Source: a virus (lineage: Duplodnaviria > Caudoviricetes). Taken from it: DNA of 55,433 nt. The translations under genes were made by a program, and so were the position numbers. The stretch lies in the IMG/VR virus record IMGVR_UViG_3300044707_000152, positions 1-55,433 of that record, one strand, 5' to 3'. The notes beneath the pieces are model-generated. The model was given only the letters and a program-made list of their open reading frames with translations. It was not told the DNA's origin and did no database searches. Positions 8,121 to 49,962 of the stretch are shown here, one piece after another. Position 1 is the first letter of the stretch. Every line of letters starts with the position of its first letter.

Positions 8121-8152
8121 CTTAACCTAAACTATCGTTAACGATAAAAACT

Positions 8153-15646: not shown

Positions 15647-15667
15647 TTATCGGAAACGATAATCCCT

Positions 15668-30114: not shown

Positions 30115-30705
30115 ATGATAGTAATGCTCGATACATCGGGCAGTCTTGAAACGGCTGCAAGTGAGCTTGATTGTGAAGTCGAACAACTTTTAACACCTCT
30201 CACTTGCCGCCGAATTCAAGCCCCCGGCAAACACTTTGCGGTAGATAACGGAGCATTTTCACAATTGGAAATCAAAGGATTCTTGTCTTTACTTAAAAGA
30301 CTTGAACCAGAAAAGCACCTTTGTAGGTGGGTAGCAGTTCCAGATATTGTTGGATCAGCGAGAAGAACGCTTGAAGTATGGAGTAGATGGAAGGATCGAA
30401 TCAACTACCCATTGGCATTTGTATGTCAAGATGGGCAAGAAAACTTTGATCTACCTTGGGATGAATGCTCTGCAATATTCATCGGAGGAACAACTGAATG
30501 GAAAATGTCCAATCATGTTGTTCACCTTATCAAAACAGCAAAGGCTTTAGAGAAATGGATTCATGTTGGCAGGGTCAACACGCCCGGACGATTTGAATAC
30601 TTTGAAGAACTTGGAGTCGATAGCCTTGATGGAACTGGACTAGGTAGATACACCCACATGAGGAAAGCAATATACGAAGAAAGAAACCAACCTAAACTAT
30701 TATGA
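30115..30705 (+). CDS. dpdA: DNA 7-deazaguanine transglycosylase (DpdA / TGT-like)
   Basis: DNGAF, PDIVG, IFIGG, HVGRVN, DSLDGT match the TGT/DpdA TIM-barrel motif order; adjacent to queF-L and queD. Confidence 0.7.
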   Translation: MIVMLDTSGSLETAASELDCEVEQLLTPLTCRRIQAPGKHFAVDNGAFSQLEIKGFLSLLKRLEPEKHLCRWVAVPDIVGSARRTLEVWSRWKDRINYPLAFVCQDGQENFDLPWDECSAIFIGGTTEWKMSNHVVHLIKTAKALEKWIHVGRVNTPGRFEYFEELGVDSLDGTGLGRYTHMRKAIYEERNQPKLL

Positions 30706-30944
30706 ATATCTACGAGACAACACATAGAGCCGCTTGCCCGAACGGAAAATTGATAGACACATACGATATAAAGATAACGAGTCACAACACGATAATCGTG
30801 GAGGACTTAATTGAACTCTTGAAAGATGCGCCAAAACAAATCTATCAAGAAGACTTGGCTGATCACCTCCGCGCCAAACTTGGAGCGAAGGTAGAAGTAA
30901 TCGGATTGCACTACGGAATCAAAATAACCTGCATCAGAGAATGA
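30702..30944 (+). CDS. QueF-like (QueF-L) T-fold protein, candidate preQ0 amidinotransferase
   Basis: ACP...D.Y.I.I...VE...YQE...H pattern of QueF-like proteins; lies between dpdA and queD. Confidence 0.6.
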   Translation: MNIYETTHRAACPNGKLIDTYDIKITSHNTIIVEDLIELLKDAPKQIYQEDLADHLRAKLGAKVEVIGLHYGIKITCIRE

Positions 30945-31288
30945 AAACTACAGCATTCAAAGACTTCACATTTAGCGCGGCCCATTACCTTAAAATACCA
31001 GATCACCCATGTTCAGTCATGCACGGGCATAACTACAGAGTAAGAATAGAATGTTCTGGTCAAGTAAACACCTTGGGAATGGTAGTGGATTTTGATGAGA
31101 TAAAACGAAGGGTTGATCCAATCATTAAAAAATTGGATCACAAAGTTATCAACGATGTAATATTTGGAGGAGCAACATCAGAGTATATCGCGGCATGGAT
31201 ATTCAAACAGGCTAATGACCAACTTGGAAATGTGGTGCGAGTCACACTATTTGAAACTGATACTTGTGGAGCGATAGTAGAGAAGTAA
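30941..31288 (+). CDS. queD: 6-carboxy-5,6,7,8-tetrahydropterin synthase
   Basis: FSAAH, C..MHGHNY, GMVVDF, LDH, TSE, ET motifs. Confidence 0.93.
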   Translation: MKTTAFKDFTFSAAHYLKIPDHPCSVMHGHNYRVRIECSGQVNTLGMVVDFDEIKRRVDPIIKKLDHKVINDVIFGGATSEYIAAWIFKQANDQLGNVVRVTLFETDTCGAIVEK

Positions 31289-31311
31289 GTATCGTAACCG
31301 ATAAAAATGAT

Positions 31312-31339
31312 TTGACATTGGTCTTCTGTCCGCTAGGTT
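31312..31339 (+). promoter_or_regulatory. Sigma70-like promoter facing a non-coding region
   Basis: TTGACA-N16-TAGGTT, 8 nt after a palindrome copy. Confidence 0.55.
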
Positions 31340-31398
31340 GCTCGTATCCAATACGAGTTCTAGCCGGACTTTGGAGATCAATTTTCAGTCAATAAAAT

Positions 31399-31442
31399 GG
31401 GTCTGTTGTATTCCGGCTAGATGCAACAGGCCCAATTTTTTT
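31399..31442 (+). terminator. Terminator/attenuator hairpin
   Basis: GGGTCTGTTGTAT-TCCGGCTAG-ATGCAACAGGCCC then AATTTTTTT. Confidence 0.65.
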
Positions 31443-31807
31443 GCCACCATTGGATCGTGTAGCCAGCGGGGATGCGTGAAGGACGCACCGAGAGTAGTCT
31501 GCTAAATACTGGTGAAGGAGTGGAGTTGGAATGGCTGCTAAGACTGTTATCCTGCCAACTTAATGTGCCAGCAATGGCGACTTGCAATTAGTCAACGATA
31601 TTAGACTAGTCTAGGTAAAGGAGAACCGCTGGACGTGGATTGCGAAGCGAAGGTGATACACCCATACAGAAACGTGTATGATTCATTCGGCAAGTTTTCC
31701 CAAATTTTTGGGAGACTTGTCGCTCTGGTTCTGCCCCGCCAGAAACGCAGGAGATTCATTCTCCGAGTAGAATATATTCTGAATAGTTTCAGATTGGTTT
31801 AGATAAC

Positions 31808-31845
31808 AAAAAAACCAGAAAGGAATTTCTTCCAATCTGGTTTTT
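31808..31845. terminator. Bidirectional terminator between convergent transcripts
   Basis: AAAAACCAGA...TCTGGTTTTT. Confidence 0.65.
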
Positions 31846-31865
31846 AAGTTTAAGTGAAACTGGTT

Positions 31866-33494
31866 TTAAATCAGATTCTCTTCTTCATCTTTTGGAGCTA
31901 GTGAGATAGTCCCATCTATCTCGCCATCTGCCAGCAAATCCATGTTCTTCAACTTGCCGTCTAGTTTTTCACAGATGGATTCCTCAATCCCTACACCAGC
32001 GGCGTAGATGATATACTGAATCGACTTCGACTTGCCGCCTGCCCGATGCACTCGACCCAATACTTGCTTCAGGTCGAAAACGCTAGGGCTAGGCATTATT
32101 AGCGCGACTCTCGGATGGTTGCCGTTGAGGTCTTGAAGGTTTAATCCTTCCCTGCAAGCTTGTATGATACCCACGATAACCCGTGAGTCATCGCGCTGGA
32201 AGCTGTCGATGTTACCTCTACGCTCTAGTTCATCCTGACCGCCGTGGATAGAGCAACTAGTTTTAAGCTCATCCAGAATAAACTTGCGAGTTTCGCTGTA
32301 GTTGACCGCTACGAATACCGAGTTGCCTTCTTCGATCATATCTCTGACCATAGCGCAAACCGCCGGGGCTTTGTGGAGTTCAATTCTTTGACGAGCGCGG
32401 GTCTGCTCTGCCAAAACATTAGCGGAGAAGTTTTCTAAGCCCCGCAACTCTTCGATACGATTACAAAGATCGTCATACTCACCAGCAATCTTTCGAGCGT
32501 TATCCATATCGAATGCTCTTGCCTTAATCATAGTCTCAGGGAACGCATCACCCAAGTCTGAGTGACGGAGCCGATTGCCTTTCTCTGGATAGATACGAGA
32601 ATGCAACTTCTTCAAGACCGAATGCCCTCCTGTGAACTGCATTCCGAAGCGGGTTTTCCTGCATCCGTTCTGTGATAGGAAACGGAAGTAATCCTTGCCG
32701 CCTTGATGAAGACCTAAAAACTGACCGATTGCCCATAGCTTGGTAGGATCATCCGCAATAGTAGCAGACAGAGCAATGGCAGGAATGTTCTGGACTACTG
32801 AATCCCGAACGAGATAGGCATTCTGTGTAGCTTCACCCTTGCCGCGATGAACCTCATCGAATACGAGTAGAACATCTTCGGGCAACATGAAACGGAATGT
32901 TTTCTTATGCTCATCCGTCCATCGGCCTAACTGACTCTTACCAGTTTTCGCCCATTCCCACCCACAAATCTCAAATACCTCAACGCCCATCATCTTCGCG
33001 GCACGATGCCAGTCCGTTGTAATAGGTTTGGGGCAGACTACCGCGATGCGTTTACCAAGCTCTCTAGCGATACCCAAGGCGCAGAATGTTTTTCCTACGC
33101 CCGTGGAGTGTCCGAGAAGGACGCGATTGTATTTGTTCATCGAAGCAACGCCCATCTGAACTGAGGTTTGCTGATACTCAAAGAGTCCTTCGGGATGAAG
33201 TAGAGGGATCAGATTAAGTTCTGGTTCCACTTCTGTCTGAGTATCGGTTACGATAATTGACTTAAATTTAAGCTGATCATCTGACCAGTGCGTCAACTGC
33301 CACTCTTCGCGGAATTTACCTAACTGAATGCCAGCGTCACCCATTTGCTTCTTGAATAGCTCTTTATCTTCACCATATACTTTCCAGAATTGTGGAGTAA
33401 TGGGAGCTTTCTTGAGGAGTCGAACGCCTCGCTTTGTATTGAGTTGAATGGGATGCGACCACTCAACCGTTGCCATAAGGTCGTGGATGTTCAT
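31866..33494 (-). CDS. Superfamily 2 (SNF2-like) helicase
   Basis: STGVGKT (motif I), DEVH (II), LSAT (III), EGLNL (V), QVLGRVHR (VI). Confidence 0.9.
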   Translation of the reverse strand: MNIHDLMATVEWSHPIQLNTKRGVRLLKKAPITPQFWKVYGEDKELFKKQMGDAGIQLGKFREEWQLTHWSDDQLKFKSIIVTDTQTEVEPELNLIPLLHPEGLFEYQQTSVQMGVASMNKYNRVLLGHSTGVGKTFCALGIARELGKRIAVVCPKPITTDWHRAAKMMGVEVFEICGWEWAKTGKSQLGRWTDEHKKTFRFMLPEDVLLVFDEVHRGKGEATQNAYLVRDSVVQNIPAIALSATIADDPTKLWAIGQFLGLHQGGKDYFRFLSQNGCRKTRFGMQFTGGHSVLKKLHSRIYPEKGNRLRHSDLGDAFPETMIKARAFDMDNARKIAGEYDDLCNRIEELRGLENFSANVLAEQTRARQRIELHKAPAVCAMVRDMIEEGNSVFVAVNYSETRKFILDELKTSCSIHGGQDELERRGNIDSFQRDDSRVIVGIIQACREGLNLQDLNGNHPRVALIMPSPSVFDLKQVLGRVHRAGGKSKSIQYIIYAAGVGIEESICEKLDGKLKNMDLLADGEIDGTISLAPKDEEENLI

Positions 33495-44244: not shown

Positions 44245-45171
44245 TTAAAAGTTAGAAAATCGTTCTGGTTTGGTAGTTGTTTTTGGTTTTATCCATTCAG
44301 CCTTGAAGCTCTGCCATCCACGGGTGACGCATTCGGTCAGTGCCTCCTCAATGTGCATCGCTGCCTTCTCTGCTTCTTTGGCGATAGACGCGAGGGCGGT
44401 TGCTGATAGCGGGGCGCGTTTGGCTTTACGGAGGGCGATGAAGTCATCCCAGACTTGCTCGCCTACTCCAGCAGGTTTTTCAATTTGGGTAGCTGACGAT
44501 TTTTTATTTCGTGGGGGGGCCGCGCAATGGGGGGCCGTTTCTTTGCCATCGGCGGTGGTTAGCTTAGTTTTAACTAAGCCCGAAGCGTTAGCTTCACTTG
44601 GGTTAGTCGAGAATAGATTTGGTTGATTCAATTCAACCGAGGAATGTGAGGCCACTGCCGAACTTTCCTCTTCCCCTTGAAAAGGGGTTAGGGGTTTTGT
44701 ATTCTCTGTTAGTTTCTCTGTATATTGTTTAATATGACGCGCGCGCACGGAACGAGAAGAATCTTCCACATGGTCAGGAAGAATCTTCCAGATGGATGTG
44801 GAAGAATCTTCCAGATGGTCTGCTCTTTCGGAGGTCAAAATTGTGAGTGCAGATTGGCTGATTGTGTAATACTTCATTGCCTTTCCAGCCTGCAAATCGA
44901 ACTGCTTTGACTTAACCAAACCCATACTTTCAAGCGTCCGAAATACCTCACCGATTGTCCTTGTTGACCAAAACGGAAACGAGAATTCGCGCCATTGCTC
45001 AAGGGTGTTGAATATCCAACGCTCGTCATCCACAACTTTTCCAGATCGTTTTTGACCGCACCAGAACTTCAGAGTTTGAAGCACGATTGCTTCTGGTAGC
45101 CCGATTAGTTTTGCCAAGGTTGGCTGAAAGACGATGGGCGTTTCGTCAATCAATAGATTTGATTTACTCAT
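44245..45171 (-). CDS. Replication initiator (lambda O-like)
   Basis: N-terminal winged helix (LAKLIGLPEAIVLQ...WIFNT..W), internal iterons, C-terminal WDDFIALRKAK...RGWQSFKAEW; lies upstream of dnaB. Confidence 0.8.
   Translation of the reverse strand: MSKSNLLIDETPIVFQPTLAKLIGLPEAIVLQTLKFWCGQKRSGKVVDDERWIFNTLEQWREFSFPFWSTRTIGEVFRTLESMGLVKSKQFDLQAGKAMKYYTISQSALTILTSERADHLEDSSTSIWKILPDHVEDSSRSVRARHIKQYTEKLTENTKPLTPFQGEEESSAVASHSSVELNQPNLFSTNPSEANASGLVKTKLTTADGKETAPHCAAPPRNKKSSATQIEKPAGVGEQVWDDFIALRKAKRAPLSATALASIAKEAEKAAMHIEEALTECVTRGWQSFKAEWIKPKTTTKPERFSNF
44695..44820. other. Probable replication origin (iterons plus AT-rich segment) inside the initiator gene
   Basis: GAAGAATCTTCCA[CG]ATGG at 44756, 44778 and 44801; AT-rich stretch at about 44695-44735. 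Confidence 0.75.
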
Positions 45172-45320
45172 TTAAAAAAAGGCGACCCCTTGTAGTGGCG
45201 AAGAAGTGCGGCAACAGACGCATGAAGGTGGATTACCACCACAAGGGATCATTTAGTTTTATTTGGTTAACTTAAACTTCTTCAATCCGGCCTTCACCCC
45301 GGATGTGCAATTTCTCGCAC
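45172..45320 (-). ncRNA. Structured leader of the initiator gene with C4-antisense-like architecture
   Basis: Two 5' hairpins plus a long-stem element whose unpaired parts are complementary to upstream sites; U-run before the ATG. Confidence 0.45.
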
Positions 45321-45326
45321 AAGACA

Positions 45327-45355
45327 AAACTACTATAGGTTGTGTTCGATGTCAA
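45327..45355 (-). promoter_or_regulatory. Promoter for the replication operon
   Basis: TTGACA-N17-TAGTTT on the minus strand, 10 nt from the 45366 palindrome. Confidence 0.5.
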
Positions 45356-45380
45356 GCATCTTTTTTATCGGTTACGATAA

Positions 45381-46175: not shown

Positions 46176-46186
46176 AATTTTATCGG

Positions 46187-46570
46187 TTACGATAACCAGT
46201 CCATTTCAACCTTCTCAACTTCACCTTTCGACCACTCATACATTTTGTCGTTGAGTAAGTCCCAGATTTGACTGGCATCTTCTTCTGTCTCGCACTGGAA
46301 GGTGGAGCGGCGTTCACCGATACCTTCTTTAGTAATGACAATATCTGACTTAATAACAGTATTACTATTTACACCTGTCGCGGCCATGATTGCGGTGTTG
46401 TTTATTCTGAGTGCCATGACAAGAATACCTTCATCACTTTCGTAGGTAGCCATGAACGGAGTCTCCAGCGCGGCGGCTAAAGATAGGTTTGTAACCATGA
46501 CAGTTTGCTTTACTCCAGCGAGTAATTTTTCTGCGTTGTCTTTGATGTTGTTAGTGTTATCCATAAGCAA
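46187..46570 (-). CDS. Hypothetical protein
   Basis: 127 aa; stop codon lies inside the 46181 palindrome. Confidence 0.65.
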   Translation of the reverse strand: MLMDNTNNIKDNAEKLLAGVKQTVMVTNLSLAAALETPFMATYESDEGILVMALRINNTAIMAATGVNSNTVIKSDIVITKEGIGERRSTFQCETEEDASQIWDLLNDKMYEWSKGEVEKVEMDWLS

Positions 46571-49572: not shown

Positions 49573-49950
49573 ATGAAACTAAAAAACAAAAACCTCGCAC
49601 CAATCGGCGGCTGGTTCTTTAAATATGAGATCAAGCGCGATAAACTCACATTTCCTGCAATTGTTCATGGTAGCACATGGAATTCCTTGATAAAGAATAT
49701 CGAGAAAGACTATCGCGCAAACAACATCGAACTTCCTGCTAACATCGAAGCGATGGTCGAAGATCAAATCTGCCAGCGTCAACCAAGTGATCGTTGCTGG
49801 TATGTTGATGGTCTTGGAGACAAGATCGCTAAAGCCATCCATACAGTCGCAGCGGTAACTGACAAAGTTTTGAAAACTAAACTTGAGCAGAAAGCTAAAA
49901 TATGTCCTTCCTGCAATAAACGTAGGGTTGCGCTTAACTCATTATCGTAA
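49573..49950 (+). CDS. Hypothetical protein with CxxCxxR...LN C-terminus
   Basis: GLGDKIAKAI...CPSCNKRRVALN; stop codon lies inside the 49943 palindrome. Confidence 0.7.
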   Translation: MKLKNKNLAPIGGWFFKYEIKRDKLTFPAIVHGSTWNSLIKNIEKDYRANNIELPANIEAMVEDQICQRQPSDRCWYVDGLGDKIAKAIHTVAAVTDKVLKTKLEQKAKICPSCNKRRVALNSLS

Positions 49951-49962
49951 ACGATAAAATAT

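Follow-up and report, generated by a model that had tools for sequence, protein, structure and literature searches.

A candidate family of structured noncoding RNA carried as an optional cassette in an uncultured freshwater phage lineage

The cassette and its predicted RNA

The window analysed here, meaning the whole stretch of IMG/VR record IMGVR_UViG_3300044707_000152, is a complete 55,433-bp viral record in which a cassette free of open reading frames (ORFs) fills the 577-bp gap (31289-31865) between queD and a convergent superfamily 2 (SF2) helicase gene. Since the genes up to 31288 lie on the + strand and the helicase gene and replication module on the - strand, this gap is the convergence point of two operons. 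From left to right, the cassette holds a promoter-like site, a leader, a pseudoknotted core of ~180 nt (31463-31643), a looser hairpin array, and a two-way terminator, and it most likely specifies a new structured RNA family that belongs to no known Rfam family and is carried by one uncultured freshwater phage lineage. An earlier note on this DNA had taken the region for an unassigned phage noncoding RNA (ncRNA), a view upheld by covariation, the lack of a conserved ORF or an Rfam match, the promoter-like site and terminators, and contigs from RNA libraries. The immediate setting of the cassette comprises the following features:

30941-31288, + strand: queD (Pfam PTPS, 2.1e-31; PHROG QueD-like)
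31290-31303, no strand assigned: palindromic motif TATCG-N4-CGATA heading the cassette, an element of the phage backbone and not of the insert
31866-33494, - strand: SF2 helicase gene, which converges on the cassette

The core fold was derived from stacked column pairs with compensatory changes, together with inspection of divergent variants, in an alignment (A1) of 26 sequences with 16 distinct rows. On A1, 98.7% of cells are paired and 15 of the 42 pairs change on both sides, a count above that of both sets of controls (6.7 +/- 1.3 in shuffles, with 0/500 reaching 15, and 0-2 in slid controls); covariation among homologs was one of the checks that the earlier note had suggested. All of the motifs from which that note had assembled a multi-branch fold are present at the positions it gave, and three of its hairpins persist (31473-87; AGTTGG/CCAACT, 31524-29/31555-60; GCCA-GCAA-TGGC, 31567-78), whereas its closing helix CCAGCGG/CCGCTGG (31463-69/31626-32; 89.3% of cells paired) gives way to the covarying alternatives H1 and H2, and both its inner TAGTCT/AGACTA helix (31495-500/31603-08; 80.2%) and its TACT-GGTGAAGG-AGTG hairpin (31507-22; 87.5% for TACT/AGTG) are displaced. 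Overall, that fold leaves 92.4% of cells paired on the same rows, against 98.7% for the revised one, which consists of the following elements:

31463-31643, + strand: core domain, defined by covariation on A1
31463-69 with 31488-90 and 31509-12, + strand: H1, pairing CCAG (31463-66) with CTGG (31509-12) and then CGG with CCG
31473-87, + strand: hairpin TGCGT-GAAGG-ACGCA
31491-31500, + strand: mini-hairpin of 3-4 bp, with an extra C-G pair in 11 of the 26 rows
31519-23 with 31626-30, + strand: H2, the pseudoknot helix, AGTGG with CCGCT (GATGG/CCATC in L012 and L055)
31524-29 with 31555-60, + strand: H3, in three sequence versions
31566-79, + strand: H4, in four stem versions with a GNRA or UUCG loop
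31584-88 with 31639-43, + strand: H5, GCAAT with ATTGC (CCGAUC/GAUCGG in L012 and L055; A-U to G-C in L030)
31589-93 with 31604-08, + strand: H6, TAGTC with GACTA, from covariation
31609-12 with 31631-34, + strand: H7, GTCT with GGAC (U-A in nine distinct rows, C-G in seven)

The predicted core is pseudoknotted, because the 3' strand of H2 lies inside the H7 loop and H2 crosses H5. Within H2, 100% of cells are paired and two of the five pairs change on both sides, the changes coming from L012 and L055 only; in H1, CCAG/CTGG is replaced by GCGA/TCGC or TCGA/TCGA; and in H4, the loop swaps between GNRA (GCAA or GUAA) and UUCG along with changes in the stem (GCCA/UGGC, GUCC/GGAC, GCCC/GGGC, ACCA/UGGU). 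Several unpaired nucleotides of the core are invariant. The + strand of 31441-31805 folds at -115.5 kcal/mol (z -2.34; 0/100 shuffles as good), the z value of the - strand being -1.70. The + strand is favoured as the RNA strand because G-U pairs are fixed on it in both core and leader and because RNAalifold gives 31455-31640 an energy of -41.2 kcal/mol on the + strand vs -35.4 kcal/mol on the - strand; the promoter-like site and terminators lie on the same strand.

The 3' domain is, judging from the variants, looser and partly dispensable. Two of its hairpins, CATACA/TGTATG (31663-68/31675-80) and the long hairpin at 31688-31722, had been picked out in the earlier note and are present in the window. 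In an alignment of our own, the long hairpin is paired in every cell and has three covarying pairs; in the L019 group its two arms form one more A-U pair. The stretch from ~31760 to 31792 is absent in seven distinct L019-group rows of the tool alignment of this domain (A3), L131 being of the same type, and L055 is without most of the domain. The two-way terminator-like hairpin T2, common to the cassette and the helicase gene end, has 98.9% of its cells paired; a terminator scan did not flag it because its stem has an internal loop. The elements of this part are as follows:

31644-31800, + strand: 3' domain, with the conserved linker AAGCGAAGGUGA and, present in the window, hairpins at 31663-80 (variable), 31688-31722 (long), 31729-44, 31750-64, 31769-80, and 31779-92
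31808-31845, no strand assigned: T2, read from the sequence as an A run, CCAGA..GGAA-UUUC-UUCC..UCUGG, and a T run

No protein-coding capacity accompanies this fold, and the earlier description of the region as ORF-free holds in the sense that short ORFs of 26-56 amino acids (aa) exist in the stretch and none is conserved among homologs. Of 25 homologs, 19 interrupt the 55-aa GTG ORF at 31635 with a stop after three codons and two have lost its start; no ORF of >=30 aa is shared among nine representative variants, the other short ORFs shifting frame or vanishing; and indels of 1, 2, 6, 14, and ~38 nt separate the homologs, non-multiples of three being common. A protein-coding gene or pseudogene was accordingly rejected, no reading frame being conserved, as was a riboswitch or cis-regulatory 5' leader, since no conserved ORF follows and the next gene converges on the other strand. 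The Rfam search that the earlier note had likewise proposed gave no match at the gathering score in the whole window (4227 models), and at expectation values (E) up to 10 the region 31200-31950 gave 11 matches, none of which reached its gathering score and most of which fell on the T2 hairpin. No tRNA or tmRNA gene was detected in the window by ARAGORN.

Upstream of the core lies a leader with features of a regulated terminator, made up of these elements:

31312-31339, + strand: promoter-like site read from the sequence, TTGACA (31312-17), a 16-nt spacer, and TAGGTT (31334-39)
31341-31357, no strand assigned: perfect palindrome CTCGTAT-CCA-ATACGAG across the predicted start, with three of seven pairs changing on both sides
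31346-31352, + strand: AUCCAAU, complementary to AUUGGAU at 31449-55, candidate closing helix of the leader domain
31360-31368, + strand: leader segment S1a (CUAGCCGGA), predicted to pair with the T1 apical loop (31412-20)
31399-31442, + strand: T1, terminator-like, with stem 31399-31411/31421-33, loop S1b (31412-20), AA, and seven T
31449-31455, + strand: AUUGGAU, the last stretch common with the alternative cargo type described below (homology to L007 and L028 ends at 31455)

The promoter hexamers are kept among 27 homologs, most of which have TAGATT, and the spacer varies; a simple promoter scan did not flag the TTGACA-N16-TAGGTT site, from which transcription would start near 31346. The palindrome across this position has 95.8% of its cells paired (UA in 15 vs CG in 11 rows), and this covariation fits two readings: an operator-like DNA site or, given a transcription start further upstream, a hairpin at the 5' end. 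The helix AUCCAAU/AUUGGAU (duplex -5.8 kcal/mol) has 98.5% of its cells paired and no both-side change in the tool alignment; in our own alignment, L030 replaces A-U with G-C at 31350/31451, which weakly supports a closing helix of the leader.

The pairing of S1a with the T1 loop (a helix of 9-10 nt) has the firmer covariation: across 28 distinct rows that include both cargo types, six of its 10 pairs show changes on both sides, pairing holds in 96.9% of cells, and the helix comes in at least five sequence versions. This S1 duplex (-19.1 kcal/mol) is nearly equal in stability to the T1 hairpin (-20.1 kcal/mol), and, in a nascent RNA that reaches only to 31421 and still lacks the 3' arm of T1, it is the pairing of minimum free energy. 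Both S1/T1 loop and core H2 have the form of an H-type pseudoknot. T1 itself is the only terminator-like site in a scan of 30800-32200 (hairpin 31398-31434, 15 pairs, loop 7, then ATTTTTTT) and resembles an intrinsic (Rho-independent) terminator in its G+C-rich stem-loop and T run; its stem has 2-3 covarying pairs, with G-U pairs fixed on the + strand.

Sequences from public RNA libraries reach into the cassette. A public-run index lists 21 rows from 14 studies that hold part of the stretch, 18 of them RNA runs, the largest shares being 0.33, 0.20, and 0.18, and contigs of four RNA libraries from four studies cover 31335-31805 in pieces. Two of the contigs (31365-31624 and 31335-31556) bridge T1, which is consistent with read-through without proving it.

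Distribution among relatives and genomic context

Relatives were gathered by a protein search with the helicase, which gave 28 IMG/VR loci, and by pattern scans, which added contigs from viral, metagenome, and genome collections; chance matches in unrelated DNA accounted for 12/20 viral, 27/46 metagenome, and 3/4 genome-collection pattern hits. In this way, 27 distinct cassette copies were obtained from related phages, all uncultured, with L097, L131, and the truncated L137 as further ones. All copies lie between the same 92-aa gene and the helicase gene, and they are confined to one lineage and one site. Identity among relatives is 79-91% for the cassette, vs 69-83% for blocks from the cassette through the helicase gene.

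Occupancy of the site was counted on 27 helicase loci with both flanks. The site is empty in 11 of these relatives, where 59-114 nt hold only a G+C-rich two-way terminator hairpin; nine carry an RNA cassette of the window type; and two (L007 and L028) have another ORF-free cargo, of ~430 nt, flanked by the cassette's own first 167 nt and last ~60 nt, L130 and L138 being two more examples of this alternative cargo behind the same promoter, leader, and T1. The other five have protein genes at the site, four of them encoding proteins of 206-308 aa with an HNH motif, which was recognised by eye without a family-library search. A genome-wide search for the cassette in five empty-site relatives (four of them >=90% complete) found no copy, and the same search recovered one copy in each of five out of five carriers. 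Because these empty-site relatives have no copy anywhere and all five carriers were detected, the cassette RNA is, at the level of genome sequence, an accessory (optional) element.

The alternative cargo (L007:5694-6122 and L028:5684-6110) is rich in GNRA-type loops and differs between the two genomes by at least one compensatory pair (GGTTGG/CCTAACC vs GGTCGG/CCTGACC). A search of the L007 copy gave no Rfam match at E up to 0.1, a comparison of the two cargo types for common words gave one 8-mer and no other similarity, and a covariance model (R1), run on the window, the empty-site genomes, and the alternative cargos, returned the known copies only and no remote ones. Among five relatives with other inserts, the only Rfam match, to twister-P1, was below threshold (L007:735-816, + strand; 31.8 bits and E 0.0043 against a gathering score of 67.2); it lies a long way from the site, ~3.2 kb upstream of the helicase gene. 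The HNH genes are free-standing at the same site (L011, 5630-6560; L029; L023; L027), and a conserved structured 5' leader (GGCGTGAAACCC...GGTAAAGGTTTCACC) is common to three of these inserts (L011, L029, and L027). The T2 hairpin also closes the alternative cargo of L007 and L028 and the HNH inserts of L011 and L029.

The cassette, and likewise 8 kb around it, had no DNA match in a cultured-phage collection; at the protein level, the 829-aa ORF matched nothing there and the 525-aa ORF had a single weak match, to a tail fibre. L097, a 51,842-bp contig from a genome collection, is a near-complete relative that includes the cassette and is filed in a metagenome-assembled genome (MAG) of Candidatus Woesearchaeota; this placement is probably a binning artefact and not a host assignment. 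A Bacteroidota host was also considered and found no support, the strict Bacteroidetes-type promoter pattern giving 0 hits vs 1.1 expected.

The neighbourhood of queD, by which the earlier note had located the RNA, is an accident of this one genome, as far as the sequences compared can tell, because no relative examined has the block 30115-31288. This block, composed of a 196-aa ORF (phrog_15826, a family of unknown function), an 80-aa ORF (phrog_37496), and queD, forms an insertion whose exact edges are the 92-aa gene's stop and the palindromic motif, and it is missing from all 28 helicase relatives; in each locus aligned on both sides, window position ~30112 is joined directly to ~31286, and an RNA-library contig in run X6 has the same junction. 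The 'dpdA-like' label first given to the 196-aa ORF was an early guess and was dropped, Pfam giving no match and PHROGs a family of unknown function.

The TATCG-N4-CGATA motif that heads the cassette also stands at the empty sites of relatives L024, L010, and L016. In the window it occurs with exact arms at 19 sites and, with <=3 mismatches, as 42 strand matches vs 2.7 +/- 1.7 expected; examples of TATCG-N4-CGATA(A) lie at 1676-1689, 8133-8146, 15648-15661, 46181-46194 (- strand), and 49943-49956. At several genes the motif stops 2-8 nt before the start codon, the usual Shine-Dalgarno (SD) position, and the 2191-aa gene contains further copies; a regulator site and a translation-linked RNA hairpin are both possible roles of the motif. 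Only two of the window's 34 gene starts have an SD-like tetramer at -4 to -18, and the 20 nt upstream of the 34 starts are 69% A+T (55% in the genome) with repeated ACCTAAAC-like words; the scarcity of SD tetramers, the A+T-rich upstream 20 nt, and the recurring words suggest that the host or phage starts translation without SD pairing.

The leader of the O-like/DnaD-like replication initiator gene (45171-45380, - strand) also has the palindromic motif and TTGACA upstream, the pair recurring there (45349-45379, - strand) with 90% identity to the cassette's copy. In that leader, an 8-codon mini-ORF is accompanied by two hairpins and by a long terminator-like hairpin whose T run ends 3 nt before the ATG; its loop GGTGAAGG is complementary to CCTTCA inside the terminator-like hairpin, and the whole looks, from its sequence, like a regulated attenuator.

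Interpretation and competing explanations

The reading preferred here is that of an optional cassette for a + strand structured ncRNA with a leader gate and a trans-acting cargo. Transcription would start near 31346 from the TTGACA-N16-TAGGTT site; once made, leader segment 31360-68 would pair with 31412-20 and hinder closure of T1, so that polymerase reads into the cargo, and masking of the leader segment would restore termination at T1. The leader would thereby serve as a switchable gate common to two unrelated RNA cargos. The cargo RNA would end at T2 and act in trans by its shape, most likely as a protein-binding decoy or cofactor in an accessory host-takeover or counter-defence function, being neither a base-pairing RNA nor a coding one. 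Action by shape is proposed because of the compact pseudoknotted core, its invariant unpaired nucleotides, the lack of a conserved ORF or antisense target, and moron-like genetics (autonomous accessory genes are discussed below) combined with an identity of 79-91%. The statement as a whole is given a rough probability of 0.55. Its parts differ in strength: that this is a genuine structured RNA gene is very probable, the leader gate is a tentative proposal somewhat short of even odds, and protein binding or decoy action of the RNA is possible at rather longer odds.

Several points weigh against this reading. The revised core fold was counted on the sequences from which it was derived, so that the slid control is biased in its favour; the support for H2 and for parts of H5, H6, and H7 comes from two related sequences (L012 and L055); and the variants are mosaic, so that some of the co-variation reflects jointly inherited blocks. 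Since all copies come from a single lineage and a single site, independent diversity is limited. In the 3' domain, the tool alignment A3 gave three both-side pairs, a number that 70/500 shuffles equalled or exceeded, and covariation there is not above controls. As regards expression, the RNA-library contigs indicate presence only, not strand, ends, or level, and may stem from DNA carry-over; one of them begins at 31335, upstream of the predicted start. Lastly, a search for partner genes co-occurring with the cassette (five genomes with, four without) produced only spurious frames and tail-fibre alleles, in a comparison confounded by kinship.

Among competing explanations, a purely cis-acting role deserves the most attention: the cassette might serve to gate or insulate transcription where the late (+) and replication (-) operons converge, or might be a source of regulated antisense read-through into the helicase gene, the cargo having no role of its own. 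The position exactly at the convergence point with T1 and the two-way T2, the regulated-terminator features of the leader, and the empty sites holding only a two-way terminator all speak for it; nevertheless, a gate needs no 180-nt pseudoknotted core kept by compensatory change, and a plain terminator suffices in 11 of the 27 relatives, which makes this reading unlikely. A catalytic RNA (ribozyme), or a multimerising RNA such as ROOL or GOLLD, would suit the compact pseudoknotted core with its invariant unpaired nucleotides, the setting in a phage accessory region, and the sub-threshold twister-like match elsewhere in L007. It is less likely again, as the Rfam matches at E up to 10 included no ribozyme or large-RNA family, the sequence bore no visible signature of a cleavage site, and the RNA is far smaller than GOLLD. 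The chances are slim for a replication-related transcript, which by analogy with ColE1 RNA II (the R-loop/primer RNA of a replication origin) would furnish an R-loop or primer RNA at an auxiliary origin: a promoter and a long structured untranslated RNA do adjoin the replication module, the initiator gene has the same promoter motif ahead of it, and the 3' part is A+T-rich (GC 0.40-0.42), but the cassette is dispensable in 11 of the 27 relatives, inspection of the sequence and alignments by eye, without a repeat-finding tool, brought up no iterons or repeats, and selection is seen on RNA pseudoknots and not on an RNA-DNA hybrid region.

Both functions that the earlier note had suggested fare slightly worse still. 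Its proposal of a Csr/Rsm-type sponge, in which GGA loops would soak up a CsrA-family protein, drew on about a dozen GGA triplets; there are 11 in 365 nt vs 7.2 +/- 1.9 in shuffles, a mild enrichment that 19/500 shuffles attain, and only two AAGGA motifs (31515-19 and 31618-22, both unpaired) are invariant or nearly so. The sponge fails on motif number, motif conservation, and architecture alike: 6/26 homologs have lost the GG in the loop of the first hairpin, the second 'loop' is partly a helix strand, and the core is compact and pseudoknotted and not a series of repeated GGA hairpins. Moreover, even the Rfam matches at E up to 10 include no model for CsrB, CsrC, or Rsm, and the usual GGA/SD logic is not evident with SD-like tetramers at 2/34 gene starts. 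The other proposal, that of a second target or decoy for an antisense element common with the replication-initiator leader, is as improbable. The identity of GGTGAAGG at 31511-18 and 45291-98 (- strand) is real, and both loci carry the upstream TATCG-N4-CGATA motif and TTGACA; however, this one common 8-mer, the only link of the cassette to the supposed element, is weak evidence, since it occurs five times in the window and its 7-mer GTGAAGG 20 times vs 7.3 +/- 2.8 expected, and it lies partly in a covarying helix, the GGTG half changing together with its partner 31463-66 in 5/26 homologs. The best complementarity of the cassette RNA to the rest of the phage genome (15 nt, one mismatch, E 5.2) is at chance level. 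A decayed protein gene, which the earlier note had named as the outcome that would undo its view, or a homing-endonuclease remnant is barely credible: HNH endonuclease genes do occupy the same site in L011, L029, L023, and L027, but no frame is conserved, pairs change in compensation, tetraloops are swapped, and the cassette is more conserved than the neighbouring genes.

A bolder version of the preferred reading, namely a modular 'RNA moron' platform, may also be considered. One promoter and pseudoknot-gated terminator leader would serve interchangeable cargos (~350 and ~430 nt) at a hotspot common with homing endonucleases, and the cargos would be shape-based decoys or cofactors swapped in an arms race, as an RNA counterpart of protein anti-defence islands. 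This extension is speculative and more probably wrong than right by a wide measure.

Relation to known phage RNAs and accessory genes

Most known phage accessory functions are proteins, and, to our knowledge, structured phage RNAs of several hundred nucleotides carried as optional cargo are few, with almost none having a known role. The present locus offers a clean case, as it combines a supported fold with two pseudoknots and carrier and non-carrier variants in collinear complete genomes. A second unrelated RNA cargo stands behind the same leader, and the pairing between leader and terminator loop is directly testable in vitro. Should the decoy or cofactor role prove true, a class of RNA would be added to the means of phage host takeover or counter-defence; should it not, there would still be a new family of RNA and a terminator gate of a new type.

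As to prior descriptions, 10,006 candidate structured RNAs have been catalogued by covariation from phage intergenic regions of IMG/VR, i.e., from the same data source and with the same kind of evidence as used here (Fremin et al., 2023, PMC10690425). The main text of that report describes no helicase-adjacent motif and contains the word 'helicase' 0 times; the region may be an unnamed candidate in its supplementary tables. Full-text literature searches returned no account of the cassette RNA.

GOLLD and ROOL are large 'ornate' orphan RNAs of phages and prophages without a known function (bioRxiv 10.1101/2024.12.08.627333). Membership of the cassette RNA in either was rejected, as there is no Rfam match and no tRNA gene in the 55-kb genome. 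The cassette RNA shares with them the character of a heavily structured, covarying ncRNA from phage or prophage accessory regions in environmental sequence. Unlike them, it is without an Rfam match, much smaller (core ~180 nt, ~500 nt in total), and without a neighbouring tRNA gene.

RNA anti-CRISPRs (Racrs) are reported to be stand-alone phage ncRNA genes that mimic an RNA bound by a host protein (PMC10651486; bioRxiv 10.64898/2026.06.03.729762). The cassette is likewise a stand-alone ncRNA gene in a phage accessory region; however, Racrs are short mimics of CRISPR repeats, whereas the cassette has no evident repeat-like unit or known mimic, and its decoy role is one that we only infer.

For the leader, the closest parallels are the P4 CI RNA and the c4 RNAs of P1 and P7, in which a leader hairpin loop is complementary to another transcript segment near a terminator and governs read-through. 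A segment of the cassette leader is similarly predicted to pair with a hairpin loop beside a terminator. In contrast to those systems, the cassette has no Rfam C4 match, the pairing lies within a single leader upstream of a noncoding cargo, and no trans target was found in the phage genome.

In its genetics, finally, the cassette is reminiscent of phage morons, accessory genes that lie between conserved ones and bring a promoter and terminator with them. Like them, it comes with a promoter-like site and terminators of its own, varies in presence among close relatives, and occupies a hotspot common with homing endonuclease genes; it differs from morons in that its payload is RNA and not protein and in that two unrelated RNA payloads are found on one leader.

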